In this document: positions 2,503 through 60,203 of the stretch, one piece after another | Layout of the letters: every line of letters starts with the position of its first letter | How positions within the stretch are numbered: position 1 is the stretch's first letter | Assembly (NCBI GenBank): GCA_963833425.1 | Contig: CAWHXP010000010.1 | Location: forward strand, 1-64,000 | Direction: 5' to 3' | Origin: an uncultured Methanosarcinaceae archaeon | GTDB taxonomy: Archaea > Halobacteriota > Methanosarcinia > Methanosarcinales > Methanosarcinaceae | Length of the DNA: 64,000 nucleotides | Program-made: the position numbers and the translations under genes | The notes under the pieces: generated by a model | Seen by the model: the letters and a program-made list of their open reading frames with translations, nothing else | The model's database searches: none | Told to the model about the DNA's origin: nothing

Positions 2503-2534
2503 ATGCAGAAATTATAATGTTAAAACCTGTGCAT
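2503..2534. repeat. Family A dyad site (putative recombination site)
   Basis: atgcagaaattat-aatgtt-aaaacctgtgcat. Confidence 0.75.
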
Positions 2535-2555
2535 CAATAAAGTTATACATATTTA

Positions 2556-2702
2556 GATGCTATTGCAAAAAATCCTGCTTCGTAAAAACCAGTCTAAACT
2601 TTTAAAATTAGAAAAATTAATCAACTCATATCCGAAACAATGGTACATAAAGATAAGAATTGTAATAGTAAACTGCAGAAATATTATTTTTGCAACGGAA
2701 CC
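2556..2702 (+). mobile_element. IS6-related MITE, degenerate left end
   Basis: Right end ttttgcaacggaacc, left end gatgctattgcaaaaaatc; 147 bp, similar to other copies. Confidence 0.65.
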
Positions 2703-2759
2703 AAATTATGTAAGTTGTTTCAGGATATGTTTAAATTATAACAATTAAATTATACCAGT

Positions 2760-3056
2760 ATGGAAATCGCTTCCGAGCATAAAGAGTTATTTGAAAAAAT
2801 TACTGCATTCCTGAAAAAAGAAGGAGCGACAAAAATATGGATTTTTGGCTCTTATGCAAGAGGAGAAGAAAAAACGGAGAGCGACGTAGATATTCTTGTG
2901 GAATTTTCCAGTACAAAAAGTCTGCTCACCATGGTTAGAATCGAAAGAGAGCTGTCAGACTTTCTTGGAGTAAAAGTCGATTTACTCACTGAAGCTTCAA
3001 TTAGCTCGTACCTTATTGATGAAATTAAAAACGATGCAAAAGTGATCTCGACATGA
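2760..3056 (+). CDS. Minimal nucleotidyltransferase antitoxin (MntA-like)
   Basis: FGSYARGE...SDVDILVEF (GSX10DXD); overlaps the HEPN gene by 4 bp. Confidence 0.92.
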   Translation: MEIASEHKELFEKITAFLKKEGATKIWIFGSYARGEEKTESDVDILVEFSSTKSLLTMVRIERELSDFLGVKVDLLTEASISSYLIDEIKNDAKVIST

Positions 3057-3403
3057 GAAAAAATGATTTGGTTTACCTCAATCACATTCTCAACTCTATC
3101 AAAAGAATTGAGGAATATACTCAAAATATGGATAAAAGAGATTTTCTGTCCAATCACCTGGTTCAAGATGGAACGATCAGACAAATTGAGATCATAGGGG
3201 AAGCTACTAAGAATTTATCTAAAGATTTCAGGGAGAAATATTCTCAAATTCCTTGGAGCGATATTGCAGGTATGAGAGACAGGTTAATTCACCACTATTT
3301 TGGAGTTGACCTTCAGGCCGTCTGGAGCACTGTAAAAATCGATATCCCAGATTTTAAAGATGATATTTTAGCTATACTCGATGTTTTGAGATTCGAAAAC
3401 TAA
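3053..3403 (+). CDS. HEPN/DUF86 RNase toxin (HepT-like)
   Basis: EIIGEA and RDRLIHHY (RX4HXY) motifs. Confidence 0.92.
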   Translation: MRKNDLVYLNHILNSIKRIEEYTQNMDKRDFLSNHLVQDGTIRQIEIIGEATKNLSKDFREKYSQIPWSDIAGMRDRLIHHYFGVDLQAVWSTVKIDIPDFKDDILAILDVLRFEN

Positions 3404-3441
3404 AATACTCTTAATGAGTTATATTTTTTATTATGTTTATT

Positions 3442-3472
3442 GTGCATAGATTTTGCTATAAAACCTGTGTAT
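3442..3472. repeat. Family A dyad site
   Basis: gtgcatagatttt-gctat-aaaacctgtgtat. Confidence 0.85.
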
Positions 3473-5228: not shown

Positions 5229-5260
5229 ATGCAGCGGTTTTGCTATATGAACCTATACAG
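5229..5260. repeat. Family A dyad site (degenerate)
   Basis: atgcagcggtttt-gctata-tgaacctatacag. Confidence 0.6.
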
Positions 5261-6919: not shown

Positions 6920-6949
6920 CTGCATCGTTTTTCTATAAAACTTATGCAT
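6920..6949. repeat. Family A dyad site
   Basis: ctgcatcgttttt-ctat-aaaacttatgcat. Confidence 0.75.
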
Positions 6950-8578: not shown

Positions 8579-8649
8579 GGTTGATAAATTATAGACATCT
8601 ATACAATTGTGCTACAATCCTTCTTTTAAAATTAAATTGGAAAAGTTCC

Positions 8650-8680
8650 ATACATAGTTTTTGTAATTAAATCTATGCAT
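8650..8680. repeat. Family A dyad site
   Basis: atacatagttttt-gtaat-taaatctatgcat. Confidence 0.85.
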
Positions 8681-9168
8681 AAATGAAATCAATAGAAACA
8701 TAAGCTTTGTCAGTAAAACTATTGACTCTGCATCCTACTTTTTGCGGTGAAAGAAAAGATAACTTTGGAAATTCCATGGTCGTTTTGGATTAAAGCCAGA
8801 AAGATTAGAGATGTATAGCATAACCATAAAGGTAGAAGAACATTATACGCTAAAAATATTAAATATTTTAGGAACTTAGTATAACTTACGTTCTCATCTG
8901 CTACTACATAGCAACGATCTATTCCACAAAAATTATCCATCAAACGCTGTATAAAAATTTATTATATATGGTAAAAAAATAAAATCAAAAAAATGTAACT
9001 AGTGGGTCCATTATAGAATCCCTTCCATGTAAGATTGTGCCTTTAGGAACTTCAATAATTTTTCAGGTGAGAACGCAATTACCCCACTATTTTTTAAAAT
9101 TAACGAATGAACGGATATTAATAACTTTCTAACTTGGTTTATTATTTTTATTTGTTGTCTGATATTTG

Positions 9169-9199
9169 ATGTATATATTTTGTGCTAAAATCTCTGAAT
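9169..9199. repeat. Family A dyad site
   Basis: atgtatatatttt-gtgct-aaaatctctgaat. Confidence 0.7.
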
Positions 9200-9686
9200 T
9201 TCCTAAGTTCCATCTGAAATAGAAATCACTGTTGATCTATTACTCATGGAACTTATGGAGCTCATGGAACATCTGAAAATAATGTAACTAAACCCCAATC
9301 AAAAATTATAAAATAAGATAAATAATAATTAGATAGTAGTCAAAACTAGAAATATGAATAAACTAAATCAGAGACTAATTCCATACTCAGTAAATACCAA
9401 AAAAGAATTGTAAAATACAGAAATATATTTAGTATATTTTGATACCAATTAGGTATATAATTAATTAATTAATCTATTAAGTCTGATTGGTTTGTCAGAA
9501 ATTGGATAATGTATTTGAAATAGTGTGATAAAATATAAAAGCCGGCGCCAGCACTGTACTATTACCTGCCATAACACTGTTACTGGCGCTACTTTTACCA
9601 TTGCTGTGGATTACATTAACTGTTGTAGATGCCAAAGAAGCTACAACGAAAGCCACTTACATAAGGTCTGTTTTAAAGTTTCATTT

Positions 9687-9717
9687 ATGTATAGTTTTTG
9701 TGTGTAAATCTCTGCAT
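9687..9717. repeat. Family A dyad site
   Basis: atgtatagttttt-gtgtg-taaatctctgcat. Confidence 0.85.
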
Positions 9718-9804
9718 ATCTCTCACTTTTCGCAGATGCACACAAAAATGCTACCTATTTTTTTCAATAGTCCTATTCTCACTGTTTAGAATTGGAAGTG
9801 CGGC

Positions 9805-11139
9805 CTATATCCTTATGATAACTTTGGAAAGAGTCGCCATGAAAATTCCAAGAATTAACCAACCAAGAGCCCCTTCAAGTGCGACCAATTTCTTGAAACT
9901 ATCTCTAGGATACCAGTTATCATGGCTCATAAAAGTAAAACAGCCGAAGCTATAGTAAATTATATCCGTTAAGTATATCTTTTGATCCTGATCACGATCC
10001 CTTACAATACCAGGGTTCTTCAAAGCAAAAGGTAGTATTTTATTACTTTTTATATCCCAATATACATTTGCTGTTAAGCTTTTCAAACATATGGGATTTA
10101 CATATATACCCGAAAATAAAAATATAACCGCAATACCAAAAAAAATAGTATATAATGGTTTTACCCCGAAACCACAGGTGAGCCAAGAAAGAAAATCCCA
10201 CCAAAATTCAGAATCATTCCATTTTTCCTTTCTCAGTTTACTTTGTCGGTAGTTATAATATACGACATCTGCATCTGCGTATCGCCCCCGATCATTATAA
10301 TATTTATAGAATTTTTGAAAATTCTTCCCATCCAAAATAAGTTTTTCAGATGTTTCCGGCCCTATGAACTCGGCAGCATCATTAAATTTCGCCAAAGTGA
10401 AGTCGGCAGAATTATTAAAAATCGCCCAACTAAAGTCGGAAGAATTATTAAAAGTCGCCCCTGAGAAGGAGACTGAATTTTTAAAAAATACATTTGACAA
10501 ATTAAAAATGTCTTTAAAATTTTAGTTTGTTATTATGATATCGCTTTTAACAACACTTAAATGTTTTTTTAATCCAAGGGAAATAAGTAATTCTTTTGTG
10601 TTTCCGCGTCCCAAATATTTATTAAAATATGGACTGGGAACAGTTTCAAGTTTTATATTACTTATGTTTAATTTCCCAACTATGCTGCAGTTCACAAGAT
10701 TTATGTCGTCACCATCAGCTATATGTTTTAAGATATCTTCTGCGTGAACTACTGTAGACACTAATAAGATAAACTGGTCATCCATCCATAGTTTTTTAAA
10801 GTCGGGATCTTTCTTTGCTTCTTCTTTACACAATGAGTTAAGCTCTATGACTCTTTTTAAGTTAAATATTACTTGTTCTTTGTTATCAATATGAGAATAC
10901 AAACATGCACGATTGTACCAAGCATCTGAATGGTTTGGGTTAATTTCAATTGCTTTGTCATATGCCTTTAGTGCTTCGTCATGCTTATCTGATTCATCTA
11001 AAGCATTGCCTTTATGGATCCAAGTATTTGGATCCTTTGGATCAACTTCGGTGTATCCAGTTACCTGAACTACTGTAGACAGCACAGAAAATACCAGAGT
11101 TAGTAATAGGATATAAGAACCTAAAACTCCAGCTGTCAT
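9805..11139 (-). pseudogene. TPR + pentapeptide-repeat + channel-like membrane protein with one nonsense codon
   Basis: ORFs 10522-11139 and 9805-10500 are in the same frame, split by TAA at 10522-10524; TPR YDKAIEINP, ADFxxAxF repeats, WLTCGFG and hydrophobic C-terminus. Confidence 0.8.
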
Positions 11140-11183
11140 TTCTACACCAAGGTACTCTATATGTAAGCATAATTATTTATTTT

Positions 11184-11978
11184 TTGATGTCATCAATAAT
11201 TTTGCTCATTGATGACTCGGAGACATTAATTATGTTATTCCCACATTTTTTTGAGTCACTTAGTAGTGATAATCTAAAAATCCTAGATGGTACTTTTACT
11301 ATTGCAATAGTCACAGGAATACTTTATTATTTTGGTTATCTTTTGGAATTAAAAAATGTGGATAGATATGGAAAAAGACGACTATTTAAAGGATTTTTTT
11401 TTGTATTAACATTTGTTACTACTCCATGTATTGGATTTCATATTTTCATGAGAGTCACGTGTTTTGATTTTATTTAAACTCCCCATGATTCTAATCAACT
11501 TGTATATTGGTTTATTCAATATATATTGGTGATTATGCTATATATTTATGAATTTGGACAATTATCTCCAGAAGCAAAGAGAATTAAGGAGACAATTACA
11601 GCAAAAACTGATAAGGAAGTAACTGGTCATTTTACTTATATAAAAAAGAAACCAATAAAACATTTATTTACAATATTTTTACTATTCCTATTTTCGATGT
11701 TCACGATTTTTGTAAGTCTCTTCTATCTATTTGATTTAGAGTTAATGTCAATGACATTTTTAGTACTTTCTGTTATTGCTTTTGTGCTTCCTTTATATCT
11801 TAATGACTATGCAAAAGTTACCGTTTATTTGTCTGCAGAGAACAAGTCTCAGATTAACGGTTATTTGGTAATGAAAAGTGATGATGGTGTTAAAATTTAC
11901 AATGATGAGAATAACACATTTATTGACTTAAAAAATAATAATATAATACTAATTGAGTCACAAATCGATGATGTATAA
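11184..11978 (+). pseudogene. Hypothetical membrane protein, probably split by a frameshift
   Basis: Two consecutive hydrophobic ORFs, 11184-11477 and 11526-11978. Confidence 0.45.
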
Positions 11979-12146
11979 AATACAATTTTTCTCGCTTAGA
12001 AATGAAATAAATCAAGTAGTCTACCTTGCTTATAGAGAGAACTAACTAGCTAGTTAAGTTTGAGTAACTTTCTCATAGGATGTAGGGACAGCTTTGAGTA
12101 GAATTGCAGGATCAATTATGTAAATTGCATTCTCTACCATCTTAGA

Positions 12147-12177
12147 ATACATAGTTTTTGTGCCAAAATCTCTGAAT
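12147..12177. repeat. Family A dyad site
   Basis: atacatagttttt-gtgcc-aaaatctctgaat. Confidence 0.85.
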
Positions 12178-12728
12178 TTCCTAAGTTCTACCTGAAATAA
12201 AAAAAATATCGCTGATCTAATTACTCATGGAGCTTATGTGACTCATAGAACATCTAGAGCTCATGGAACACTTGGAACTAATTAACCCAAACACCCACCA
12301 TAAATAGAAAATAAGAAATAATAATTATATAAATTTGGCATTGTACCAAAAGTTCTGTAAAGTGTGGTTGATTCTATATCTTTTTCTTCCCAATGACAAA
12401 AATAGGGATTCTCAGTTTGTTAGCAAAATGAGTTAAGCAGTTACGGAAAAAAGCTTAAGCGCATCGGGTTGATTATCTCACTAACTACACAAACAATTTA
12501 TTATTATTGTTAATTTCATGTTGATAGATGTATTCTCCATGCATAATTTAAAAGGGTTGGTCACCTAATTTTCCAGGGCAATAATGATATTCCTTAAGGT
12601 AATCTCTATTGCTCTATTTCTTTTTTGAGTCTTTAGCTCAGTGATATTACTCCCATTTCAATATTTGATAATAAGTTTTTTAAAAAATTAAGAATTATAA
12701 CTCTTACAAAAAGGATTAATTTTCAGGA

Positions 12729-13286
12729 GTGAGTAATCTGGAAAAATACCAAAAATTCGTTGAGATGGCTGTCAAGCTGGGCGCCCACGATGCTAAGATT
12801 ATTAAGACAGATAGTATAGTCACAGCGGCGTGGACCAGATGGAAGTGCAGGTATGGATGTCCGGAGTATAACAAAAGCCTTTGCTGTCCGCCTAATTCAC
12901 CTACACATCAAGAGACTCGGGAACTGGTAGATTGCTATGAATACGCGCTTTTAGTACATTTTTCGCCAAATATTGACAAAGCGACGGAAGACCTGCTAAA
13001 TAGGATAAAGGTCATCACAAGGGACAGCACAACGGTCATCAACACGCTTGAGAGAGATATCTTCCTTGCTGGGTACTATAAGGCTTTTGCACTAAGCGGT
13101 GGTCACTGTCAGCTTTGCCCTGAATGCACGCTGAAGGATTGCAGGAATCCAAAGATTGCCAGACCATCGATGGAAAGTTGCGGTATAGACGTTTACAGCA
13201 CGGTGAAGAATAACGGCTATCCTATCGAAGTATTGACGGATGTATCCGATATGATGAACATCTTTTGCCTTGTACTGATCGAATAA
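12729..13286 (+). CDS. DUF2284 predicted metal-binding protein
   Basis: CRYGC, CCPP, GGHCQLCPEC, ARPSMESCGIDV; AGGA immediately before the GTG start. Confidence 0.88.
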   Translation: MSNLEKYQKFVEMAVKLGAHDAKIIKTDSIVTAAWTRWKCRYGCPEYNKSLCCPPNSPTHQETRELVDCYEYALLVHFSPNIDKATEDLLNRIKVITRDSTTVINTLERDIFLAGYYKAFALSGGHCQLCPECTLKDCRNPKIARPSMESCGIDVYSTVKNNGYPIEVLTDVSDMMNIFCLVLIE

Positions 13287-13402
13287 CCGAGATATCCTGT
13301 ATAATTTTTTCATCTTGGCTTTTTTTCATTAAAATAATATATTTCAGCTCTGTAGAATCCCTTTAAATTTGCCACAAATAACATAATTTCTTGTTTTTAG
13401 TG

Positions 13403-13433
13403 ATGCACAGTTTTTGATATAAAACTTATGCAA
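13403..13433. repeat. Family A dyad site
   Basis: atgcacagttttt-gatat-aaaacttatgcaa. Confidence 0.85.
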
Positions 13434-13927
13434 TAATCAAAGATAAAGTTTCTACAGCCTTTGAATTACGAAAATTTATTCTATTCTTTAATAAGTTGAG
13501 AATACATTTCCTTAATTTCCCATTTGAAGATAAAATGTCGCTGAGTGATTAACTCCAAAAATTATGGAACTTAAAAGTTGCCTACTTACAGGCAACTACT
13601 TAACTCTATGGCAGGATACCGACAGTGCAGTAAGGATAGCTTTGTATCTTTCATTCAAATATCTTCTTTTACTGTTTTTTTTCATAAATTGAAAGTTTTG
13701 CATACGAACCCCTATTTGTAATTGTTTATAATCATAATTTATTTTCAGTTCGAATAGATTAATATAGCATGTTGTTTTTCTATTGCTTGTTAGATTACTA
13801 AAATTCTATAGATTTTAGATCAGTATTTTATAGTTTTATAATATTGATTTAAAACTCGTGGTTTTTAGAATCTGACTTTATGAAAAAACGTAAGAAATAA
13901 TTAAATTAAACTAGAAGTGAGAAATTA

Positions 13928-14878
13928 ATGGTAGAACGTCATTCTATTGACATAAAACAAAATTCAAATGGTAGAGATAAAGCAATTAAAGAATTTAATA
14001 AGTTGTTTGAAAATTTCATTGAAAGAAGTGGTAACGTACGGGATTTAGAGAATTTTGAAATCCTTGGAACTGGAAAAATTGCTTTCAATAACACAGTTAC
14101 TGCAAAAAGTGGTACCTATAACGGAAAGCTACAAGGACTATATACTCACAATCAACTTGATAAAAGAGTTAAAATCTTCTCTCAACTGAAGGAACCAGGA
14201 AACGAAGAATTTATAGAAAGTGCCCTTAACTTTGCTTGCAATATTCAATATGGAGATTTAAGGGCCCAGGCACTTTCCATTCTTGTTCCTATTCTGGATG
14301 GGTCAAAAAAAGTCGAATTTATAGAAAAGGTCCTTTATTTTACTTCAAATATTCAAGATGAAAACGAAAGGGCCCTTGTTCTATCTTCACTTGTCTATCA
14401 TCTCAATGGGCATGACAAAGAAGAAATTATTGAACATATTTTGGATTTTTCTTCAAAAATTCAATATGATGATGCAAAGTTTCAGATTCTATCTTCTCTT
14501 ATTCCGCACTTTGCTGGATCAAAAAATGAAGCAATTATGGATAAAGCCCTTGAGCTAGTATCCGGGTTTATATCTGAATATAAAAAAATAGAGTCGTTTT
14601 CTCTTCTTCTTCCATATATGGATAAGCAAAGAAAAGAAGAAATTCTAGAACAAGCCCTTGAATTAGCTTTTAATCTCAAAGGTAAGAGCATGATGGCACA
14701 AGCTATCTCAGCTATTATACCGGGTCTTGATAAATCCAAGAAAAAGGAAATTAGTGAGAAAATATTTTATCTTAAACGTATGGGTAGATGTACGTATCTT
14801 TACGATAGAGCCGCTGTTCTTCGCAAAAGAGCAGAGACGCTTTCTTCTCTGGCACAGTATTCGGATATCTCTTGCTAG
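13928..14878 (+). CDS. Hypothetical alpha-helical repeat protein
   Basis: ~37-aa repeats (IQxExxRAxxLSSLxPxL...EFIEKAL). Confidence 0.7.
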   Translation: MVERHSIDIKQNSNGRDKAIKEFNKLFENFIERSGNVRDLENFEILGTGKIAFNNTVTAKSGTYNGKLQGLYTHNQLDKRVKIFSQLKEPGNEEFIESALNFACNIQYGDLRAQALSILVPILDGSKKVEFIEKVLYFTSNIQDENERALVLSSLVYHLNGHDKEEIIEHILDFSSKIQYDDAKFQILSSLIPHFAGSKNEAIMDKALELVSGFISEYKKIESFSLLLPYMDKQRKEEILEQALELAFNLKGKSMMAQAISAIIPGLDKSKKKEISEKIFYLKRMGRCTYLYDRAAVLRKRAETLSSLAQYSDISC

Positions 14879-15054
14879 ATATCTTGACAAACCAGGAATT
14901 TTGGTGATAAGAGTAATCAGAGTGAAAGACTCAAATTAATTTTTTGCCAGAAAAATTTTATTCTGAAGCGTATAAAAATTCTGTAAAATATAACCGGAGA
15001 TTAATCGATGGTTATAACAAAGCTTTTTTCTTATTTTTTTTCAATGTCCCATTG

Positions 15055-15085
15055 ATGCACAGTTTTTGTGATAGAACATATGTAT
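15055..15085. repeat. Family A dyad site
   Basis: atgcacagttttt-gtgat-agaacatatgtat. Confidence 0.85.
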
Positions 15086-15235
15086 TGCCTTGGATATTAC
15101 CAGCAATTATGATTAGTTCGTCATCTATAAATTTACATGCTTATTTTGAACTTTTTGCAACGAAACCTTTTGTTCAATATCCTAGCTGATAGCCAAGATA
15201 ATTATTTATCCGATATACACACTTGTGTATTTGGT

Positions 15236-15502
15236 ATGCATATGAAACAAGCTAGAATTAAAATGTCTGACCGAACCAATCAAGTTCTGAACATTGTTAA
15301 AGCAAAGTATAACCTTAAAGATAAGAGCGCAGCTATCGAATTAGTAGTAGCTAGATATGAAAGCGAAGTGCTCGAACCTGAATTAAAGCCTGAATATATC
15401 GAAAAAATGGAAAGGATTCATCAGGAAAAACCGGTTTTTATTGGTACTGTTGCCGAGTTGGACAAATTCATAGATGACTTGCCGGATGAAGATGATGACT
15501 GA
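15236..15502 (+). CDS. Antitoxin (DUF2683-like)
   Basis: NQVLNIVKAKYNLKDKSAAI...LKPEYIEK, acidic tail; overlaps the toxin gene. Confidence 0.8.
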   Translation: MHMKQARIKMSDRTNQVLNIVKAKYNLKDKSAAIELVVARYESEVLEPELKPEYIEKMERIHQEKPVFIGTVAELDKFIDDLPDEDDD

Positions 15503-15764
15503 GTACAAAGTAGCTGTTAATGCAAACATATTAAAAATTTTGAAAAAACTAAAGAAGAAAAATCGACAACTATACGAAGCTATTTTGAGAAAAGCAAGCG
15601 AAATAAGTGTTAAGCCACATCGATATAAAAATCTCAAGCACGAAAAAAGCGGATTAAGCAGAGTGCATATAGACCCTTTAGTTTTAACATTTTCGATAGA
15701 TGATGAATCAAAAACCGTGTTGTTAGAAGATTTCGACCATCATGATTTGATCTACAAAAAGTGA
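15492..15764 (+). CDS. RelE/YafQ-family toxin
   Basis: Basic ~90 aa; PHRYKNL, SRVHIDPLVLTF, DFDHHDLIY. Confidence 0.82.
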   Translation: MMTEYKVAVNANILKILKKLKKKNRQLYEAILRKASEISVKPHRYKNLKHEKSGLSRVHIDPLVLTFSIDDESKTVLLEDFDHHDLIYKK

Positions 15765-15788
15765 ACTACTTATTACAAATATTCATCT

Positions 15789-15819
15789 ATGCATATGTTT
15801 TGCTATAAAACCAATCCAC
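15789..15819. repeat. Family A dyad site
   Basis: atgcatatgtttt-gctat-aaaaccaatccac. Confidence 0.7.
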
Positions 15820-15962
15820 AGGTAAAAACGACAAATCATATTTTTATGAGAAAGATAAAAAGTGCCAGGAGCCAAAAAAAACGGTGGAGATCATGATAAA
15901 TTTCGAAAAGACTGTTATCAAGAGGCCTTCCAGGCACTTAAAAACAGGAGTGCTTCTAATTT

Positions 15963-16325
15963 TCAACAGGTCACATGAAACATTGCTATTATCTTTCCCT
16001 CGCTTTCGTTCCACAGTTTTATCGCTTCCGGGGTGCGAAGGAGTTTTGCCTCAAGCCCTTTCTCCTCGAAAAACTCCTTTGCTTCTTTTGAGAGCTCAAC
16101 GTAACCAGTCTGACCAGTTCCTATTATTATTTCATCTGCTCCTTTTTCATAGATGAATTTCGCCTCTGCAAGCGATATTTTATGGGATGTACCGTAGACT
16201 TCTTTAGAAAGCTTTTTCTTACGCTTTTCTATCTGCCCACTAATGCGGATAAGTATATCCTTTTCAAAATTATTTTCATTGACCGTAATCGAACCGAAAC
16301 TGGTTGAGTTTATCTTCGGATTCAT
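15963..16325 (-). CDS. MTH938/NDUFAF3 (DUF498) family protein
   Basis: FGSITVN, YGTSH, IIIGTG, TPEAIKLWN, FHVTC. Confidence 0.88.
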   Translation of the reverse strand: MNPKINSTSFGSITVNENNFEKDILIRISGQIEKRKKKLSKEVYGTSHKISLAEAKFIYEKGADEIIIGTGQTGYVELSKEAKEFFEEKGLEAKLLRTPEAIKLWNESEGKIIAMFHVTC

Positions 16326-16592: not shown

Positions 16593-16742
16593 GGCTCCGT
16601 TGCAAAAAATTTGGCTTTCTTGCAAAATCATTAAAAATCATCACAATTCTGAAATTTAATTATTTTAATTCGAGCGAAAATGATACCTAAAGGTGAAAAT
16701 TGTAGCGTCAAATTGCAGAAATAATATTTTTGCAACGGAATC
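16593..16742 (+). mobile_element. IS6-related MITE (150 bp)
   Basis: Ends ggctccgttgcaaaa and ttttgcaacggaatc. Confidence 0.8.
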
Positions 16743-18509: not shown

Positions 18510-18540
18510 ATGCAGAGATTTTGTAATAAAAGCTATGTAT
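18510..18540. repeat. Family A dyad site
   Basis: atgcagagatttt-gtaat-aaaagctatgtat. Confidence 0.88.
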
Positions 18541-18718: not shown

Positions 18719-19015
18719 TTAACAGGTCCATACATACTGGTTAGTATAAGGATTCCACACCCAGTCACAGTTAGCGTAGTAACGGCCATTGTTGTAGTGG
18801 TGACGCCAATGACTATTTCCCCCATCGTGGTAGCCATTGCGGCCCACCCCATGATCACCACGGTTACCATGATCACCAAGGCTACCATGATTACCATGGT
18901 CACCACGATCTCCACGCTCTGCACTAGCTGCTACAGCTGTCAACGATACTACAAAAAGGACGACTAGTATAACAGCCAGTCCCTTTTTCATTCTATCAAA
19001 TGATTGTTTCAACAT
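18719..19015 (-). CDS. Small secreted Gly/His-rich leader-family peptide
   Basis: Signal ending AASA; GDHGN repeats; C-terminal CDWVWNPYTNQYVWTC; RBS GGAGTG. Confidence 0.75.
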   Translation of the reverse strand: MLKQSFDRMKKGLAVILVVLFVVSLTAVAASAERGDRGDHGNHGSLGDHGNRGDHGVGRNGYHDGGNSHWRHHYNNGRYYANCDWVWNPYTNQYVWTC

Positions 19016-19578: not shown

Positions 19579-20315
19579 CTTTTTATCTCCTATTTTAGTT
19601 ATTTTTAAGAAAATTATTCACCAATCTACTTTTCATTGGCAGGTGTAATAAAGAACCAGAGTTCGATATGTATCTCTAAAATTGTTTTAATCATAATGAC
19701 ACTTGCCTATGGGTAGACATACATACCATATTATGATTAGTCTATAAGCTTACTTGCTGAAAGCTTTCTTATTCATAAAAATATTTTCCAGATAAAATAA
19801 TTAATATTATGCTTTAAAAATTAAATTAAAACTTCTAGACCTGTGATAATTCTTCTTAAAAGTAATATAGAGTGAATTTTGCACAATACCAAGAAGAATA
19901 TCGCCTATTTATAATACTAAGGCGGAAATCCCGGCAATATCATTTTCGTAATGGGCATGATATTCGTCATCATCACTACCATGACAACTACTACAATGAT
20001 GTGTACTATCCTGACTAAGAAGGGGCACATAACCCTGTTATTCTCGCGTAGACTGGACCTACGTACCCGTAGTGGAATAACAACCTGTCGTAATACAACA
20101 TATACTAGAACAATTATAACCCATTACAACCCAACCCACTACAGGAAAAATACTGAACGCATCAAACAGATCCCCTGAAATAGCTGATGGATTCTACTTT
20201 ACTCATATAGAAAACTAACAAGTTCAGCTTGAATGACTTTTTCACATGATGCATAGCCAGGTTGAGTATAATTGCAGAATCAATGACTTTGATTGCATTC
20301 TCTCCCATCTCACAT

Positions 20316-20346
20316 CTGAATAGTTTTCGTGTCTAAACCTAAGCAT
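20316..20346. repeat. Family A dyad site (degenerate)
   Basis: ctgaatagttttc-gtgtc-taaacctaagcat; its left flank is homologous to the left flank of site 12147. Confidence 0.65.
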
Positions 20347-21187: not shown

Positions 21188-21219
21188 ATACATAGTTTAT
21201 TGCTATAAAATCTATGCAT
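21188..21219. repeat. Family A dyad site (contains the SGNH gene stop codon)
   Basis: atacatagtttat-tgctat-aaaatctatgcat. Confidence 0.85.
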
Positions 21220-23013: not shown

Positions 23014-23044
23014 ATGCACAGTTTTTTTATGAAAACTTCTGAAT
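23014..23044. repeat. Family A dyad site
   Basis: atgcacagttttt-ttatg-aaaacttctgaat. Confidence 0.82.
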
Positions 23045-38946: not shown

Positions 38947-38961
38947 AGTGTTGATATAAAC

Positions 38962-39129: not shown

Positions 39130-39222
39130 CATAATCTATTTCCTTTTCACGAACATTTAGTTCTCTACCAACTAACTAGGATGAAATTACCATATTTGAA
39201 AATATTTTCCGTGGCAGTATAC

Positions 39223-39627: not shown

Positions 39628-39658
39628 ATGAAGAGATTTTTACGCAAAAACTATGCAT
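39628..39658. repeat. Family A dyad site
   Basis: atgaagagatttt-tacgc-aaaaactatgcat. Confidence 0.88.
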
Positions 39659-41081: not shown

Positions 41082-41112
41082 ATACACAGTTTTTGCTATA
41101 AAATCTCTGCAT
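41082..41112. repeat. Family A dyad site
   Basis: atacacagttttt-gctat-aaaatctctgcat. Confidence 0.9.
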
Positions 41113-44835: not shown

Positions 44836-44899
44836 GAGCCTATTCAAAACTAGAAAAATGAATTAACTAATCAGATATGAATTGCATGCTCAGTAAATA

Positions 44900-45187
44900 C
44901 TAAAAAAGAATTATGGGATACAGAAATGTATTTAGTATATTTTGGTACCATTTAACTATATAATTGATTAACTCGTTTATGAAGTCTGGTTGGTTTGTCA
45001 GAAATGGGATAATGTGTCTGAAATGATATAAATATAAAAAGCCAGCGCCAGGACTTGTATTACCACCTGTCACAAAGTCATTACTGGCGCTACTTTTACC
45101 ATTGTTGTGGATTGCACTAACCTTTATTGCTACCAATGAAGCTGCAATAACAGCCACTAACAAAAGATCTGTTTTAGAGTTTTATTT
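44900..45187 (-). pseudogene. Small secreted-type protein remnant abutting a family A site; second decayed copy at ~9390-9686
   Basis: ORF 44900-45163 lacks a clear start; the block is homologous to ~9390-9717. Confidence 0.45.
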
Positions 45188-45218
45188 ATGCATAGTTTTT
45201 ATGTTAAAATCCATGGAT
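45188..45218. repeat. Family A dyad site
   Basis: atgcatagttttt-atgtt-aaaatccatggat. Confidence 0.85.
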
Positions 45219-45996
45219 TTCCTTGGTTCATCATAATAAAAAAATTGCTGATTTGCTATTCGTGGAGCTCATGGAACTCATAGAACGTATGGGGCTTATG
45301 GAACACTTAGAACTAGTTAATCTAGACCACCATAATAAATAAGAAAATCCCAACAAGTTGTTGATCTGGTTCCTGGGATCAGGATTATTTATATATGATA
45401 TAAATTAGTAAAACTTGCTAAAATATAGAAAATCTTAAAAAAGTATAAATTATATAATGTTTATATTTTAGAGTTTGACGCATAAATCACAACTTTATGA
45501 TATAAAATTATTAGAGTATTTATGTGTCATTAGGAGAGATTGGAATTGAGCTATTTGACACATAGTTTACCAAGCTGCAGGTATCATTACCGTTTTAGTG
45601 TAATATGTGTCTGATAGTGAATAATTATCATATAGGTCTTTGGCTCTTAGTCTATTCAGCTGAATTTTGATCTCTCCTGTTTTATATGGGATCTTCAGAT
45701 AGACTGAATAATCCATCCAAAACAGAAATTAGTTGCTATACACTCAATATAAATTTTTTGATTTACTTCATAACTTTTAAAATTACTAAGTAACTATTTA
45801 AAAGCCAAATAGATTTTTATCCCTAGGCTATGATATTACTATTAGTATCATATACATTTTTGATAATTTTTCTCCTTCTTCACTATTACGAATGCTTTTG
45901 CCAGAAGTCGATATTTAGGGGCTGTGTCAAGAATGTCAGAATATGTTTTCGGATACAAGGTAGCATGGTAAACTGCTGGTTTTTGTGACTTAGGAA

Positions 45997-46027
45997 ATCC
46001 AGAGATTTTGTGTAAAAATCTCTGCAT
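45997..46027. repeat. Family A dyad site
   Basis: atccagagatttt-gtgta-aaaatctctgcat. Confidence 0.88.
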
Positions 46028-47547: not shown

Positions 47548-47830
47548 TCACACGTTCCTAGCGTCTTCCAATCTATAGCCTTGATACATCAACTCTTCTA
47601 ATTTTTCTTTAGAAGGAGTGTCTAATTCGATCTCTCTTCCTGAAGCACCCTGTCCTTTTCGGAGAGCGACTTCTTTAATCATACCAATCATAATTAATTC
47701 AGCGATAGAGTTTGCTACCGTTGTCCTAGCCCTGCAGTTTTCTCCAATCACTTTACTTATTTGGGTGTACGTATCTTTAATTTCGGTTGCAGTATCAATG
47801 ACTGCGATTGTATTTTCTTCCATCTCATAT
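47548..47830 (-). pseudogene. Orc1/Cdc6 C-terminal winged-helix fragment cut at a family A site
   Basis: YTQISKVIG...VANSIAELIMIGMI...GQGASGREI resembles the C-terminus of 20-1273; frame runs into site 47831. Confidence 0.65.
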
Positions 47831-47861
47831 ATGCACAGTTTTTGTGGTTGAACCTATGCTT
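47831..47861. repeat. Family A dyad site
   Basis: atgcacagttttt-gtggt-tgaacctatgctt. Confidence 0.8.
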
Positions 47862-48862: not shown

Positions 48863-48893
48863 ACGCACAGGTTTTGCTATAAAACCTATGCAT
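48863..48893. repeat. Family A dyad site
   Basis: acgcacaggtttt-gctat-aaaacctatgcat. Confidence 0.9.
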
Positions 48894-48988: not shown

Positions 48989-49138
48989 GGTTCCGTTGCA
49001 AAAAATCTGAACATTTTACAAAATCGTTGAAAACATTCACAATAAGGAGATTTTAGTTATCAAAGTTGAGTTAAAATAGTATTTAATGGAAATAATAATA
49101 GCCTCAAAGTACAGAAAAATTATTTTTGCAACAGAACC
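48989..49138 (+). mobile_element. IS6-related MITE (150 bp), left boundary of the composite unit
   Basis: TIRs ggttccgttgcaaaa and ttttgcaacagaacc; preceded by tgattggg. Confidence 0.92.
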
Positions 49139-49398
49139 AAATAACTATTTAGTCCATCTAAAATAAGTTAACAGATATCTATTCTACGTAATGTATATTT
49201 TTAATTGCTAACTGATGGAAGGATAAAATGGATTATTAACTAACAGTTAATACATAAAAAAATCGAAATTTGCTGCAAATTTATGCAAAAAAAGTTATTT
49301 ATCTTGTTTTAACCAGGCTGAATAGTTATTATTTTAGATTTAATTTTTATAGTCTTCTTCTAAACTGTAAAGTCTAGTACAACTTTCTTAAAATAATA

Positions 49399-49429
49399 AT
49401 ACATCGTTTTTGATATAAAACCTATGCAT
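49399..49429. repeat. Family A dyad site
   Basis: atacatcgttttt-gatat-aaaacctatgcat. Confidence 0.88.
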
Positions 49430-49875: not shown

Positions 49876-51858
49876 TTATACCCGCTCAACATCCAGAGAA
49901 GCTATCTGGGATGATATGTTAAGCATACTAGCAGGGATCATCACCTGGTAATCAGACACTTTTTGTAAATCGGTTGGAGCAACTTGAATTCGAGTATAAG
50001 TGCCCATATTTTTTACATTTATTTTTGGTGTGTGCCCCATTTTATACCCCCAAACTTCATTGATTACTCTTTTGACTCCATGGCTTTTTGGGGAATCGCC
50101 TTGTGATATCATCCATTGTTTTGGTGTGTAGAGATATTGTGTATTTTTGGTTGTCATAAGCGGTGCACGCGGAGTTGTGAATGTTCCCACTTTCCAGACA
50201 CCTTTTTCCTTAGTTGCTTGCGTGTAAAAAACAGTCCAAACTCCATTATTATCTTGCGCAGGAATCCAGAGTTTCAAGATGTTTCCGTCATCACTAAATA
50301 CACCTGCACTACGATATAATAGAACATCCTGGTGTGTTGCAGATGATGAATCCTTGAGGTTTAGAAGTGATGTGTTTTGAACTGTAAAATTATCGGTGTA
50401 GTTATTTGCAGTTGCAATATGTAGATCGTGGGTGAATTTACCGCCTTTACTCATCAATGTAAATAATGCATATATTGTTGAATTTCCTGGATAATTCATT
50501 GTATTCATGTGCCAGGGCTGGTAGTTGCTCGATTGATCCACAGCTTGTTTATTACCAAAATGAATCCCATCAGTGGACGTGTATCTGTTTATTACATGCG
50601 GGACAGGATCGATATCAACAATCCACATGTAATATGTTCTTGTAGCTTCATCATACAATACAGCTGGTGATACGCCATGACCATTGACATTTATTTCTGG
50701 TGAAACAGTAATACCATCATACGTTTTAACCTTCGGATCTTCTACGATTTCATCACCAACGACATCCCCTATGACATAGTAGCACATGAATTTCCCAGTA
50801 TTAGGATTGTATATTATATGCGAATCAGAACCATATGGATCAGAACCACGTGAATCAGAACCATATGGATCAGAACCATATGGATCAAGACCATAGACAT
50901 TTGCTTCATACTCAGATTCTATTGGTGTTCCAATAGGATTTTTCACTCCTGGCGGTACATACCAAACCAGTCCATCATCAGAATAGTACAAACATGCATT
51001 TTCAAGCTCACCTCTCGAGTATGCATATGGTGTAATAAACATCCACCATTTGTGACCAAAGACGCCAGTCTTATTGAAATAGATAGATGGATGATTGAAC
51101 TGATTATATCCGTATGGGTCAGGTATTGATAACGGTAGACGATTTTGAGTTGCATTTAGCATGCACATATTTGCACTACCAGCAGAATCATAACTGTATA
51201 CCACTGTATGTGAAACATTGTCTTCGATGAAGTCATTTAGCCTGATCCCAGGGGTTGGCATCTGAATATCCGAACTTTCTGAGTTTACCCAAATCATTGC
51301 TTTGTCTATTCCTTGACTTTGGAATGAACCACCACCGGCTTTGAAATATGTATGCCACCAATCTGTTCCCCTAATCCCACCTACGGGTGCGCCGGAACCA
51401 AAAGAAACGTCAGAGAATGTGCCTAGGTTATGAGTGCCCCCTGTTAGTGTTTCATTGATAGCCAATTCAATGCCGTTAGTGAATGGCTTATTCAGCACAA
51501 CATTCGCAGAAGATGTGTTTCCAGAACCTGACAAAACCAAATGTCCATTTTGTATGTCTACTGTTGAATTATTGCTTCCTTCTTTGTAAGCCGTCCACTT
51601 TGATGTATTTAAGCTGTCTGAGCTAAAGTTATCGTATGTCCACATGACTAGATCTCCATTGGGAGAATAGCCAGGAGTATCGTACACATTGAAATGTTGT
51701 GTGCTGCCATTCATATTGACTTTGAGCCACAAGTTATGCTGGGGATCAATGTAATAAGGCTGTACAGAAGATTTCAAGGGCGTAGATGTTGCAAGTGAAG
51801 TTGACAACAATAAAATCATGCTTATTAATATAAAGAATATTTTATATTTCAGTTCCAT
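49876..51858 (-). CDS. Large secreted protein with possible glycosidase-like beta-propeller and DPYGS repeats
   Basis: Signal peptide; HPSIYF, WWMFITPY, YYSDDG, YTSTDGIHF (Asp-box-like); 15-bp repeats at ~50822-50895. Confidence 0.75.
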   Translation of the reverse strand: MELKYKIFFILISMILLLSTSLATSTPLKSSVQPYYIDPQHNLWLKVNMNGSTQHFNVYDTPGYSPNGDLVMWTYDNFSSDSLNTSKWTAYKEGSNNSTVDIQNGHLVLSGSGNTSSANVVLNKPFTNGIELAINETLTGGTHNLGTFSDVSFGSGAPVGGIRGTDWWHTYFKAGGGSFQSQGIDKAMIWVNSESSDIQMPTPGIRLNDFIEDNVSHTVVYSYDSAGSANMCMLNATQNRLPLSIPDPYGYNQFNHPSIYFNKTGVFGHKWWMFITPYAYSRGELENACLYYSDDGLVWYVPPGVKNPIGTPIESEYEANVYGLDPYGSDPYGSDSRGSDPYGSDSHIIYNPNTGKFMCYYVIGDVVGDEIVEDPKVKTYDGITVSPEINVNGHGVSPAVLYDEATRTYYMWIVDIDPVPHVINRYTSTDGIHFGNKQAVDQSSNYQPWHMNTMNYPGNSTIYALFTLMSKGGKFTHDLHIATANNYTDNFTVQNTSLLNLKDSSSATHQDVLLYRSAGVFSDDGNILKLWIPAQDNNGVWTVFYTQATKEKGVWKVGTFTTPRAPLMTTKNTQYLYTPKQWMISQGDSPKSHGVKRVINEVWGYKMGHTPKINVKNMGTYTRIQVAPTDLQKVSDYQVMIPASMLNISSQIASLDVERV

Positions 51859-52400
51859 ATTATCACAAAATTTTTTAAAATATCTTGATAGTTTTACTGA
51901 CTTGTATATTTAATTTTAGAGATAGGCGATTTTCAGTAATAATAAGTAATTTATGTCATAACATGGTAAATAATACGCATGTTAATCTATAAATATTTTA
52001 GTATGTTTAAAAAATATGATTCGCTAAAAAATTATAAACACCACTTTAGAAATTAAGACAGTTTGCTTTGAATAGCTGGGCTAGAAATACAACCAAAAAA
52101 AGAAGTTTTTCAGCAACGATCTTGTTTGCTAACAAAATAAACAGTAACAAGGACGCAATATAAGTATTACTCATCAAAAACCAAAGCAAATCGGACTATA
52201 GCAGACTTCATCTCTTTAAAATTAAACAAGCGAATTTATTACTTTTATACTTCAAATACAAAATCCTTTAACAGTAATGATGGATTTTAATTTTCTTTTC
52301 CGATAATTCGTTTCAAATTTGAAAAGATAGGTAAACAAAAGAACTCTTCAATTAAATATAGGTTTATAGAAATTCTCGTCAAAACCCAATTAAGATTTTA

Positions 52401-52550
52401 GGTTCTGTTGCAAAAATAATTTTTCTGTACTTTGAGTCTATTATTATTTCCTTTAAATGCTAATTTAACTCAACTTTGATAACTAAAATCTCCTTATTGT
52501 GAATGTTTTCAATGATTTTGTAAAATGTTCAGATTTTTTGCAACGGTACC
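52401..52550 (-). mobile_element. IS6-related MITE (150 bp), inverted copy
   Basis: Near reverse complement of 48989-49138; truncates ORF 52529-52810. Confidence 0.9.
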
Positions 52551-52810
52551 GTCCATTTTAATGTATTTAAGCTGCCGGAGCTGAAATTATCGTATGCCCA
52601 CATAACTATATCTCCATCAGGAGAATAACCAGGTGTATTGTACACATTAAAATGTTGTGTGCTGCCATTCATGTTGACTTTGAGCCACAAATTATGGTGG
52701 GGGTCGATGTAATATGACTGTGCCGTAGATTTTACAGTCTGAGTTGCTGCAAGTGCAGGAGCAGACGATAAGATTATGCTGATTAATAAAAAGAATACTT
52801 TATATTTCAT
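52551..52810 (-). pseudogene. 5' fragment of a paralog of 49876-51858
   Basis: YYIDPHHNLWLKVNMNGSTQHFNVY nearly identical; ends at the MITE. Confidence 0.85.
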
Positions 52811-58422: not shown

Positions 58423-58434
58423 GAAGTAAAATCT

Positions 58435-58584
58435 GGTTCCGTTGCAAAAAATCTGAACATTTTACAAAATCGTTGAAAACATTCACAATAAGGAGATTTT
58501 AGTTATCAAAGTTGAGTTAAAATAGCATTTAAAGGAATTAATAATAGCCTCAAAGTACAGAAAAATTATTTTTGCAACAGAACC
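58435..58584 (+). mobile_element. IS6-related MITE (150 bp), right boundary of the composite unit
   Basis: Near-identical to 48989-49138; followed by tgattggg. Confidence 0.92.
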
Positions 58585-58706
58585 TGATTGGGAACTGAAT
58601 ATCTTAAAAAATGAAGATCCAATAAAAGAATCATTGGTTAATTGGTTGAGATTATTTAGGGCAAGCTAAAGAGTATCATATTGCCTTTCTGCGATACTTT
58701 GCCTAT

Positions 58707-59867
58707 TCAATATTCAAAAATAGCTTCAATTACGGGCTCTGCAAGTTTTATCACATCTTTTTTAAAAGAGTATATATCATCTAAAACAGCAGAATTTCTT
58801 CCCTTTAATAGTTTCTGTTTCAGTTTTTTCCCCAGAATGTCGTCGTTTCCCGCTTCCAGCCTGAGCACTAAAGACCCCGGATAAATTTCTGTTCGACGCG
58901 CAAGGTTGTCGCAGTCCCCGTCAATGATCCCGATAATAGGAATCTCAAGCCTGGAGAGGATGTCGCCTGCTATGGCTGTGGTGTCATCCCCCACGGTAAC
59001 TGCAAGTTCAGCTCCAGCAGCTAGTTCGAAGGTGTATTCTGCTTTATGATCTATAAGTACAACTTTTCCTGTTCTGAGCCTGGAAGAGAAACCTGAACTT
59101 CTGTCACAGGGATTTTGTTTTTGGGTATTAGGGAGTAAGAAATCGCTTCTTCTCAGGTTCCCACTCTTTGCCCAGGCTTTTGCAAGGTCAAGTGAGTCCA
59201 TTTTTTCATAATTATGAAGCTTTTCTAACCCGTGCTTCTTTAATACTCCCCCTTCGATTGCAACAATAAAGCCATTTTCGGAAACTATGCTTATTTTGGA
59301 AGATAGGGCTTTCCCAATCACGATCCCGTTTACCAGGATATTTTCACCGGGAAAGATGCCTGAAAGCTTGCGGATAACCCGGATTTTACCTGTGATCTGG
59401 CATTTTTCTACAAATACCTTATTTTGAAGAGGTAGAGGGCTTTTCATAGGAAGCCCTAAAGTCTCGGAAAGTGTCTCGAGGTATTCTCCTGCTTTTTTGT
59501 TAAAAAGTATCAATTTCCCATCGGTGCATTTTGGGCTTTCTATCTGGATAAGAGGCTTCATCTCCGGCTCTCTGAGACGAGCGACAACCATCGCTCCGAA
59601 TACCCCCCCGGTTTCAACTGTTTTTCCTCTGTTCAGGAGGCACACAAGGTTTGAGGTCTCAAAAAAGGCTTCGATACAGGCACTCGGCTTCAAGTGTCGA
59701 CTGATGTCTATAACATTTTCAAGTCCGGCATCAAGGACAGCTGTTTTTCCCATGGTCCCTCCAAGCATGGCCTCTACTGTGCCCATGCGAGAAAGTTTTT
59801 CAAGGACTCTTTTCGCCTCTCCCGAATCAATCACTTCGGGTCCGTGAATTACCAGGCCGATCTTCAT
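58707..59867 (-). CDS. DUF2117-family methanogen protein
   Basis: MKIGLVIHGPEVIDSG, GGTMGKTAVLDA, VTVGDDTT, GIIDGDCD. Confidence 0.85.
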   Translation of the reverse strand: MKIGLVIHGPEVIDSGEAKRVLEKLSRMGTVEAMLGGTMGKTAVLDAGLENVIDISRHLKPSACIEAFFETSNLVCLLNRGKTVETGGVFGAMVVARLREPEMKPLIQIESPKCTDGKLILFNKKAGEYLETLSETLGLPMKSPLPLQNKVFVEKCQITGKIRVIRKLSGIFPGENILVNGIVIGKALSSKISIVSENGFIVAIEGGVLKKHGLEKLHNYEKMDSLDLAKAWAKSGNLRRSDFLLPNTQKQNPCDRSSGFSSRLRTGKVVLIDHKAEYTFELAAGAELAVTVGDDTTAIAGDILSRLEIPIIGIIDGDCDNLARRTEIYPGSLVLRLEAGNDDILGKKLKQKLLKGRNSAVLDDIYSFKKDVIKLAEPVIEAIFEY

Positions 59868-59910
59868 TTTCAGCTGGTTTAAAGAGAAGACACTTATTAA
59901 TGTTGCCCTT

Positions 59911-60173
59911 AGAGCTTATCCAAAAAGTGTTGTAACCTACTGTAATATTTACGGTCCGTCGCTGTTCCTAAACCTTAAAGAGGCGCATCGTGCTTGCAAT
60001 CTGCATGTTCATAGGCCCAGGAATTTTTGCATTGACCGGCCTGGCTCGCAGCATGGGAACTATCCATGAAGCGATCCTTTCCTCGCTCCTTATAACCTTT
60101 GTTACCATTTCAATGATCCAGATATCTTCCTTCTTGGCCTGAAATTCCCTTCGACCACCTAGGCTTGCCGGAG
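59911..60173 (-). pseudogene. Possible IS5-like transposase C-terminal relic ending at a family A site
   Basis: GC-rich patch; broken frames read VEGNF/GQEGRYLD; stops at site 60174. Confidence 0.35.
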
Positions 60174-60203
60174 ATACACAGTTTTTGTAATAAAACTTGG
60201 TAT
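60174..60203. repeat. Family A dyad site
   Basis: atacacagttttt-gtaat-aaaacttggtat (1-bp deletion in the right arm). Confidence 0.75.

Follow-up and report, generated by a model that had tools for sequence, protein, structure and literature searches.

The stretch of DNA analysed here, 64,000 nucleotides (nt) at the start of contig CAWHXP010000010.1 of an uncultured Methanosarcinaceae archaeon (assembly GCA_963833425.1; hereafter the window), carries an array of short two-armed inverted repeats, or dyads, of mostly 31 base pairs (bp) that divide the DNA into small gene modules. We consider it rather probable, judging from the sequence comparisons below, that these dyads are core sites of a small, Methanosarcina-specific tyrosine recombinase acting in trans on a plasmid-like module array; binding, strand exchange, excision, insertion and ongoing mobility are what we infer for the sites and this recombinase. 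A preliminary description of the window had proposed that a tyrosine recombinase acts in trans on a site-specific cassette array, and three independent lines now support that proposal: in each of 21 related pairs the similarity between flanks breaks off at the site, the sites look like polar sites used as duplex, and on Methanosarcina plasmids such a site is linked to a recombinase gene with which it changes together.

Extent of the array and build of the site

We searched both strands of the window with the two-arm consensus of the preliminary description, allowing up to three mismatches, and obtained 40 strand matches, which correspond to 21 distinct sites, against an expectation of 0.01. 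On inspection together with the flanks a dyad was visible at all 29 starts given in that description, five of which have a centre of 4 nt (6920) or 6 nt (2503, 5229, 21188 and 34789) rather than 5 nt. A half-site weight matrix of 13 columns, built from the window coordinates, returned 26 dyads at a threshold of at least 14 bits, 22 of them with at least 26 bits; all 26 were among the 29 listed sites, none having been missed, and the same scan on 100 local shuffles of the window yielded no dyad. Pattern, matrix and shuffles thus bear out the claim of about 30 conserved dyads dividing the region into gene units. As to the individual sites, 26 stand as strong dyads and two more, 15789 and 20316, as decayed ones, whereas 60174 is a half-site and not a full site, so that the real array comprises 28 sites and extends from 2503 to 49429.

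The 27 segments between neighbouring sites measure 487 to 4807 nt (median 1621), and the spread over the window is uneven, with 28 sites in 46.9 kb versus one weak site in the last 14.6 kb. Lone half-sites are no more frequent than by chance (13 versus about 12 expected), indicating that arms occur in pairs only. Not one of the 28 sites falls within any of the 40 confident genes, which occupy 47% of the interval, and a single one (21188) overlaps a gene end, reaching 8 nt into the gene for the SGNH hydrolase, in agreement with the earlier statement that the sites are intergenic or at gene ends.

In 23 of the 28 sites arms of 13 nt surround a centre of 5 nt, which may alternatively be read as 12-7-12; this is the layout of a tyrosine-recombinase core site, in which two inverted arms, each about 9-13 bp long, enclose a short centre of some 6-8 bp. 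Within a site the arms resemble each other no more than do arms drawn from different sites: identity at the three variable positions was 23/78 versus 29.3 ± 4.0 with shuffled partners, and over all 13 positions 247/338 versus 255.7 ± 4.3. Single-strand folding gave z-scores of -2.9 or below for three of 19 sites, the other 16 lying between -2.07 and +0.66. The absence of co-variation between arms together with the poor folds argues that there is no selection for a hairpin, and on both grounds we ruled out reading the dyad as a hairpin, a terminator or an attC site. From its sequence the site rather resembles double-stranded DNA to which two protein subunits bind. Rfam had no match in the window, and no transfer RNA (tRNA) gene is present in it. 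A TATA box in the centre that drives leaderless genes was also considered; the spacing at the b modules (see below) fitted, but the centres of the three sites beside these modules are not TATA-like, and we abandoned this reading.

The sites are polar. A leave-one-out matrix of 31 columns gave the identical partition of orientations in five of five random restarts; the left arm has a run of five T followed by G, the right arm a run of four A, and the arms prefer different bases at two arm positions. Twenty-one of the 28 sites point the same way, and the block from 27290 to 39628 is reversed. Along the array there are 8 orientation runs versus 11.5 expected (P 0.06), a number that falls to 4 (P 0.0003) once the orientation of three sites of weak polarity is assigned, post hoc, from their neighbours or flank family.

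Evidence of exchange comes from the flanks, which we read outward from every site and compared all against all. Families of similar flanks start within a few bases of the site edge, X with five copies, b, c, e and f with three each, and Y and g with two each, and every family keeps to one side of the oriented site, given that the weakly called site 30595 is taken as minus. In all 21 related pairs the adjacent 60 nt are similar (mean identity 74%) and the opposite flanks, at 56%, fall within the range of random flanks (53.6 ± 5.2, maximum 67); not one of the 21 pairs shares both flanks. Similarity that ends at the site, with no shared double flanks, indicates that the sites are points at which sequence was exchanged or joined. 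The families combine freely, as site 12147 has b on its left and X on its right and site 45188 has Y on its left and X on its right. Moreover, the unit 9169-9717 runs from X to Y, and the order Y-site-X at 45188 is its circular permutation, so that 45188 looks like the closed junction of this unit. Many modules are decayed.

The recombinase gene beside the site on Methanosarcina plasmids

Site 41082 with five flanking bases on each side served as query in a search of plasmids. The matches lay in the plasmids of M. barkeri 227 and MS, within the annotated 5' part of a gene for a 'site-specific integrase'. Each of these plasmids, of about 40 kb, holds exactly one strong copy, the arms of which score 19.9 and 19.4 bits (39 bits together) and so equal the best window sites. 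A second dyad follows 84 nt beyond the first, with none elsewhere in the approximately 40 kb. The annotation probably places the start of the recombinase too early; translation from a methionine 70 codons downstream would give a protein of 203 amino acids (aa), the start of which lies 106 and 23 nt past the ends of the two dyads. In the M. barkeri 227 plasmid the second dyad (28151-28179 of locus L007) lies over the recombinase promoter. Second dyads that overlap the promoter suggest that the recombinase may regulate itself. Just two records, both M. barkeri, share the region upstream of this gene. We also compared the 53 nt between the plasmid dyads with the window flanks, among which the b flanks ranked 1, 3 and 6 of 56; this was too weak and was not used.

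The 203-aa protein matches PF00589 with 31.7 bits (cut-off 27.1) and is devoid of an N-terminal core-binding domain. All 33 aligned members of the family share the residues R57, K87, R147, H170 and Y179, with Lys in place of the first His. Sequence alone gave no match among the PDB entries. The structure model (predicted local distance difference test 84.8, predicted template modelling (TM) score 0.83) matches archaeal XerA, XerD, IntI, XerH and phage integrase domains; the 37 top-ranked PDB fold matches are all tyrosine recombinases or integrases, the best being archaeal XerA (4a8e, E 1.5e-3, TM score 0.57). By PF00589, catalytic residues and modelled fold, this plasmid family is one of tyrosine recombinases. 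XerA itself, which the preliminary description had considered as the enzyme, is not likely to be the one, as members of the family score 16.6-18.1 bits against the archaeal XerA model of NCBIfam, the cut-off of which is 220.

Searching with tblastn we found relatives in five plasmid records, all from Methanosarcina and belonging to three lineages, and none in phages; a search of phage records for the site likewise gave matches at chance level only. In three of the records, Wiesmoor, Kolksee and M. vacuolata, the recombinase is 62-63% identical. These plasmids contain a dyad of the same build, unique per plasmid and 102 nt before the annotated start, and here, too, a second dyad-like repeat lies between the first dyad and the gene start; the outer arm bases, however, differ from those of the dyad in 227 and MS. 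In five of five Methanosarcina plasmid records a unique dyad hence precedes the recombinase gene by 102-106 nt, and the different outer arms of the groups with 100% and with 62-63% identity imply that site and enzyme change together. The family comprises 233 clusters of about 200-240 aa, and some of its members are on megabase-size contigs of M. mazei and M. hadiensis. A Methanosarcina plasmid tyrosine recombinase dispensable for replication, SsrA of pC2A, has been described (PMC9569500); it was not among the tblastn matches and could not be placed in the 203-aa family.

The replicon that carries the array resembles these plasmids as well. Compared with the initiator-like AAA proteins of the plasmids, the product of its Cdc6/Orc1 gene (20-1273) is 52.6% identical to that from Wiesmoor and 38% identical to that from 227 and MS, and it is only 42% identical to the best match named ORC1-type. 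Close relatives (at least 73% identity, with clusters of 85-97% among them) are on contigs of at most 117 kb, and the GC content of the window (0.33) is near that of the plasmids (0.34-0.36). By sequence similarity the Cdc6 of the window is of the plasmid type. This, the contigs of the relatives and the GC content are the reasons why the window is probably part of a large plasmid or plasmid-derived replicon. The array begins 1.2 kb from cdc6; array DNA from 8600 to 16000 showed no similarity to the plasmid collection.

Related loci were obtained from one scan of genome contigs with the window Cdc6 as query. Two of them, L001 from a metagenome-assembled genome (MAG) of a Methanosarcina sp. (Cdc6 86% identical) and L002 from a Methanosarcinaceae MAG (65% identical), have one strong dyad each, and three unrelated bacterial loci from the same scan have none. 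In L002 the genes for a pentapeptide protein and a tetratricopeptide repeat (TPR) protein, which correspond to window positions 9805-11139, are followed by the dyad, with its right arm toward the gene end as at 9687. This module is located downstream of cdc6 in L002, beside repeats that resemble origin recognition boxes (ORB), and 8.5 kb upstream in the window. It is a single example, across genomes, of module and site having stayed together in different surroundings.

We propose the following mechanism. The 31-bp dyad would be a double-stranded core site of inherent polarity, in which arms of about 13 bp each flank a centre of about 5 bp, and it would be recognized by the Methanosarcina-specific family of tyrosine recombinases that have about 200 aa and no domain other than the catalytic one. 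On plasmids of the M. barkeri type the site upstream of the recombinase gene would probably function in resolving or integrating the plasmid, and the copy near the promoter in self-regulation. In the window, 28 sites would separate modules of one to four genes (toxin-antitoxin, hydrolases, transporters, cofactor genes and decayed pieces), which a recombinase encoded elsewhere would join, excise and re-insert at the array sites. Since direct orientation prevails among the sites, modules would be expected to leave as circles and to be re-inserted.

Individual sites, modules and neighbouring features

The array opens at its left end with the minus-strand site 2503-2534 (arms 6.6/20.0 bits). Plus-strand sites follow at 3442-3472 (15.1/17.9 bits, with a polarity margin of just 0.6 bits), 5229-5260 (16.1/4.1 bits), 6920-6949 (11.2/14.9 bits), where flank family c lies on the left-arm side, and 8650-8680 (17.2/15.6 bits), where family e lies on the right-arm side. 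Site 9169-9199 (+; 10.0/15.5 bits) is bordered by an X module on the right-arm side, 9687-9717 (+; 14.3/15.8 bits) stands between a Y module on its left and the pentapeptide-TPR module on its right, and 12147-12177 (+; 17.2/15.5 bits) joins b to X as mentioned above. Plus orientation holds, too, for 13403-13433 (19.5/10.0 bits), 15055-15085 (19.5/10.6 bits) and 18510-18540 (19.4/14.5 bits), the last with weak polarity (2.6 bits) and family e to its right, and for the decayed sites, 15789-15819, with a left arm of 15.9 and a right arm of -0.7 bits, and 20316-20346 (2.4/8.5 bits), which has a b module to its left. Site 21188-21219 (9.4/19.2 bits) is assigned to the minus strand with uncertain polarity, and the plus-strand sites 23014-23044 (19.5/11.2 bits, family c to its left) and 23905-23935 (17.2/19.5 bits, one of the three sites that fold well single-stranded) complete this part.

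The sites of the inverted block are all minus. Its first site, 27290-27320 (10.2/13.3 bits), and its last, 39628-39658 (14.3/19.4 bits), both have an X module on the right-arm side, and between them lie 29219-29249 (17.8/16.1 bits), 30595-30625 (14.4/9.2 bits), for which the matrix leans to plus by 1.8 bits and flank family f indicates minus, 31503-31533 (19.9/17.3 bits, likewise family f) and 34789-34820 (15.6/19.4 bits), again of weak polarity (1.4 bits). Four tandem copies of a 32-nt unit (27493-27620) adjoin site 27290. To the right of the block all sites are plus: 41082-41112 (17.3/19.4 bits), the query of the plasmid search and top match to the site matrix; 45188-45218 (19.4/11.5 bits); 45997-46027 (15.9/19.4 bits), with family f to its right; 47831-47861 (19.5/8.2 bits), with b on its left and the start of a truncated gene for a Cdc6 paralogue 7 nt to the left; 48863-48893 (15.9/19.9 bits); and 49399-49429 (13.1/19.9 bits), the right end of the array, with family e to its right. 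The half-site 60174-60204 (+), with a left arm of 17.3 and a right arm of -11 bits, is a doubtful member 10.7 kb past the array.

The X module, a conserved right-arm-side flank, extends over 9200-9329 (+), with further copies at 12178-12328 and 45219-45363 and reversed copies at about 39522-39627 and left of 27290. X modules hold five to seven tandem 9-nt units (9242-9290, 12241-12300 and 45276-45335), and the lengths of the copies differ by multiples of 9; the units may be accessory binding repeats or a tiny His/Gly-rich open reading frame (ORF). The Y module, a left-arm-side flank at 44869-45187 (+), contains an ORF of 87 aa on the minus strand and has a decayed copy at 9366-9686. The b module is a left-arm-side stretch of about 44 nt, found at 47787-47830 (-) and left of 12147 and of 20316, and at its first location it is fused to the truncated Cdc6-paralogue gene, which it joins to the site; near-identical relatives of this gene extend further upstream. 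We had considered the winged-helix protein encoded there (47548-47823) as a site-binding factor and rejected it, since it represents only the C-terminal part of a truncated Cdc6 paralogue and longer forms are among its nine relatives; it has no significant similarity to the window's own Cdc6. Besides this intact ORF, decayed C-terminal winged-helix pieces of Cdc6 paralogues occur at about 12060-12140 and at 20162-20308, all with the common 44-nt junction to the site, and a more distant piece lies near the window end (63515-63871).

Pfam was run on the 149 ORFs of at least 60 aa in the window and identified three MNT-HEPN pairs, a DUF2683/ParE pair, an esterase, an SGNH hydrolase, DUF2284, a TPR protein, a metalloprotease, a SHOCT protein and TrmB with NadE, so that the cassette contents named in the preliminary description hold. 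The region does not appear to be a defence island, as PADLOC, applied to 56 proteins, matched just the three MNT proteins, CorA and one methyltransferase. No recombinase was found among the ORFs of unknown family by NCBIfam (20 proteins) or, for a 660-aa protein, by a PDB sequence search. This 660-aa protein (49876-51858) belongs to no known family and has a weak match to a carbohydrate-binding protein; the first 267 nt of its gene recur with 83% identity in a 93-aa ORF (52529-52810) 1 kb away. Two proteins with similar signal peptides are encoded at 18719-19015 (-) and 60401-60703 (+), the former with His/Gly/Asp-rich repeats.

An element of the insertion sequence (IS) family IS6 occupies 37584-38388, with its transposase gene at 37619-38323 on the minus strand. 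At least six miniature inverted-repeat transposable elements (MITEs) of about 150 nt have the terminal inverted repeats of this element (16593-16742, 38962-39110, 48989-49146, 52400-52550, 58435-58585 and 63276-63425), in addition to a partial copy (2639-2706), and the IS6-type MITE is also present twice in L002. ORB-like inverted repeats flank an AT-rich stretch downstream of cdc6 in L001 (3776-3810 and 4243-4277) and in L002 (1671-1705 and 1856-1890), and this stretch is likely to be the origin. A short palindrome upstream of the window cdc6 (about 1320-1345) resembles these repeats.

Competing explanations and known systems

Several observations weigh against the dyads being core sites of a recombinase that works in trans. 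As the preliminary description had already stated, the window holds no integrase: none of the 149 ORFs has an integrase or resolvase domain according to Pfam, and tblastn with 12 members of the recombinase family against the window, L001 and L002 gave no gene or remnant (best E 0.55). Conversely, the plasmids that bear the recombinase have no array. The genes point either way relative to the sites, so that the modules must carry their own promoters, and genes of a housekeeping type (ThiC, NadE, CorA) are among them. There are 20 different centres among the 28 sites, the commonest 5-mer occurring five times, whereas recombination at the pdif sites of Acinetobacter is reported to require identical or near-identical spacers (PMC13141974). 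The arm beside a shared flank is barely better conserved than the far arm (82% versus 77%), a module kept with its site across genomes was seen in one case (n=1), and the dyads ahead of the recombinase gene could be mere operators. Finally, the divergence between the Kolksee and Wiesmoor plasmids starts 38 nt past the dyad linked to the recombinase gene, not within it. The difference (6377-7816 of L010 versus 2290-2704 of L009) is a 1.44-kb segment with a GH18 gene, and no second dyad was found at its far end.

If the dyads were operators or insulators bound by a dimeric protein, maybe a recombinase-like repressor, and the modules had been assembled otherwise, the position of the second plasmid dyad, over the promoter and 23 nt before the start codon, would find an explanation, as would the gene ends that the sites face, 35 3' ends and 21 5' ends of 56; the context is tandem at 11 sites, convergent at 12 of the 28 and divergent at five. 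The run of four or five T beside the centre on both strands would then add two-way transcription stops. Archaeal transcription termination needs a T-run alone, though, and the eight conserved outer bases would be unneeded for it. Furthermore, the distance to the facing start codon varies from 7 to 1300 nt, so that the window lacks the fixed promoter distance by which, according to the preliminary description, a transcription factor operator would be recognized, and the breaks in all flank pairs and the Y-site-X permutation are left unexplained. We hold this explanation to be unlikely. Plasmid upkeep as the only role, in which a multimer resolution site or a centromere-like or origin-proximal array grew by local duplication and the modules are immobile, seems still more doubtful to us. 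It would suit the proximity of the array to a plasmid-type cdc6 and the ORB-like repeats beside this gene in L001 and L002, the shared orientation of most sites, and the single site linked to the recombinase gene on the plasmids, which could be a resolution site. The ORB-like repeats, however, are unlike the dyad in sequence, for which reason we also rejected the dyad as an origin recognition box; local duplication predicts pairs sharing both flanks, which none of the 21 pairs does, and the pentapeptide-TPR module has a different context in L002.

That the dyads are selfish palindromes, comparable to repetitive extragenic palindromic (REP) elements or MITEs, which spread in intergenic DNA and only resemble boundaries, we regard as quite improbable. 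They are indeed short, intergenic and numerous, and IS6-derived MITEs abound in the same window; yet 16 of the 19 sites fold poorly, compensatory changes between the arms are absent, and each site would need two unrelated flank families, as at 12147 and 45188. The near-absence of sites from the last 14.6 kb and the single place beside the recombinase gene that the site holds on plasmids also speak against such spreading. Very improbable, finally, is homologous recombination between the 31-bp repeats with no dedicated enzyme, in a region that gains repeats for another reason. The repeats are 70-90% alike, enough for occasional exchange, and archaeal integrases of low sequence specificity are on record (PMC8371274), but conserved 13-nt arms around a free centre, the polarity and the link to a recombinase that changes along with the site would be unexplained.

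Gene-module arrays moved by site-specific recombination are well known from bacteria, namely integrons and the dif modules of Acinetobacter. The attC sites of integrons are 55-140 nt long and form imperfect hairpins that are recombined as folded single strands, unlike the 31-bp sites described here, which fold poorly and show no arm co-variation. Similar to integrons, the array is mostly direct-oriented and made up of small modules, rich in toxin-antitoxin genes and with decayed genes, and the recombinase gene, here on Methanosarcina plasmids, has its own site directly upstream. It differs in that there is no integrase at the array end and that genes run in both directions rather than as co-oriented promoterless cassettes; we found neither attC-type sites nor IntI and attI at an array end with co-oriented cassettes. 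Integrons in archaea were reported in 2022 (10.1101/2022.02.06.479319). The pdif sites of Acinetobacter, to which the preliminary description had compared the layout, are described as 11-6-11 sites in alternating orientation that delimit plasmid modules, many of them toxin-antitoxin, and are served in trans by XerC/XerD (PMC13141974). What our array has in common with them are short two-armed sites that partition a plasmid, or here a plasmid-like replicon, into small accessory units, many with toxin-antitoxin pairs, and an enzyme that would act in trans. The likeness does not extend to the layout itself, since our sites are about 13-5-13 and only seven of 27 neighbouring pairs are opposed, so that neither the 11-6-11 build nor the alternation is present. 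In addition, the system is archaeal, and the candidate enzyme is a single small recombinase, plasmid- and chromosome-borne and not XerA, in contrast to the host chromosome-resolution pair used at pdif.

Among systems with one recombinase, XerS is linked to difSL, an atypical 31-bp site beside its gene, as a single module (PMC5357621). This gene-plus-site layout recurs on the Methanosarcina plasmids, but XerS has 356 aa and resolves dimers at one chromosomal site, while here the protein has about 200 aa and the site is multiplied 28-fold. Archaeal dif is described as a single 28-bp 11-6-11 site per chromosome (PMC2958812, PMC5357621). XerA/dif resembles our system in being a single recombinase with an inverted-repeat site and in XerA being the best structural match; the family described here, at 17-18 bits on the XerA model, differs in lacking the N-terminal domain. 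The tnpI genes of Tn4430 and Tn5401 are preceded by their own repeated binding motifs, the internal resolution site, which also cover the promoter, and FimB and FimE belong to the tyrosine recombinases, have about 200 aa and lack a separate N-terminal domain. TnpI resolves the transposon cointegrate and FimB/FimE flip one switch, and neither serves gene-module arrays. The array lacks defining features of integrons and of dif modules, and it has the core-site features for which it was tested.

In the full-text literature, with most subscription journals outside the scope of the search, we found no account of the site, the array or the target of the recombinase family. To our knowledge, only classical integrons have been reported among recombination-driven module arrays in archaea. 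A review of archaeal tyrosine recombinases, in the passages at hand, mentions Methanosarcinales only for pT26-2-type integrases and tRNA targets (PMC8371274). We tentatively suggest that the array may represent a third, independent gene-cassette platform besides integrons and Xer-dependent dif modules. On such a platform, which we put forward as a serious possibility and no more firmly than that, Methanosarcina plasmids and replicons resembling them would collect, excise and exchange self-expressed modules at a polar 31-bp site by means of a recombinase of about 200 aa, consisting of the catalytic domain only and encoded anywhere in the cell.

The array reads as an archaeal counterpart of the bacterial gene-cassette systems. 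If our interpretation is true, a function would be assigned to 233 protein clusters now annotated just as 'integrase', and the system, compact with its 31-bp site and its enzyme of some 200 aa, would be a potential genetic tool for Methanosarcina. Toxin-antitoxin, transport and cofactor genes would flow between methanogen replicons, and methanogens, provided that site and small recombinase work together, would have their own route to gather and exchange accessory plasmid genes.

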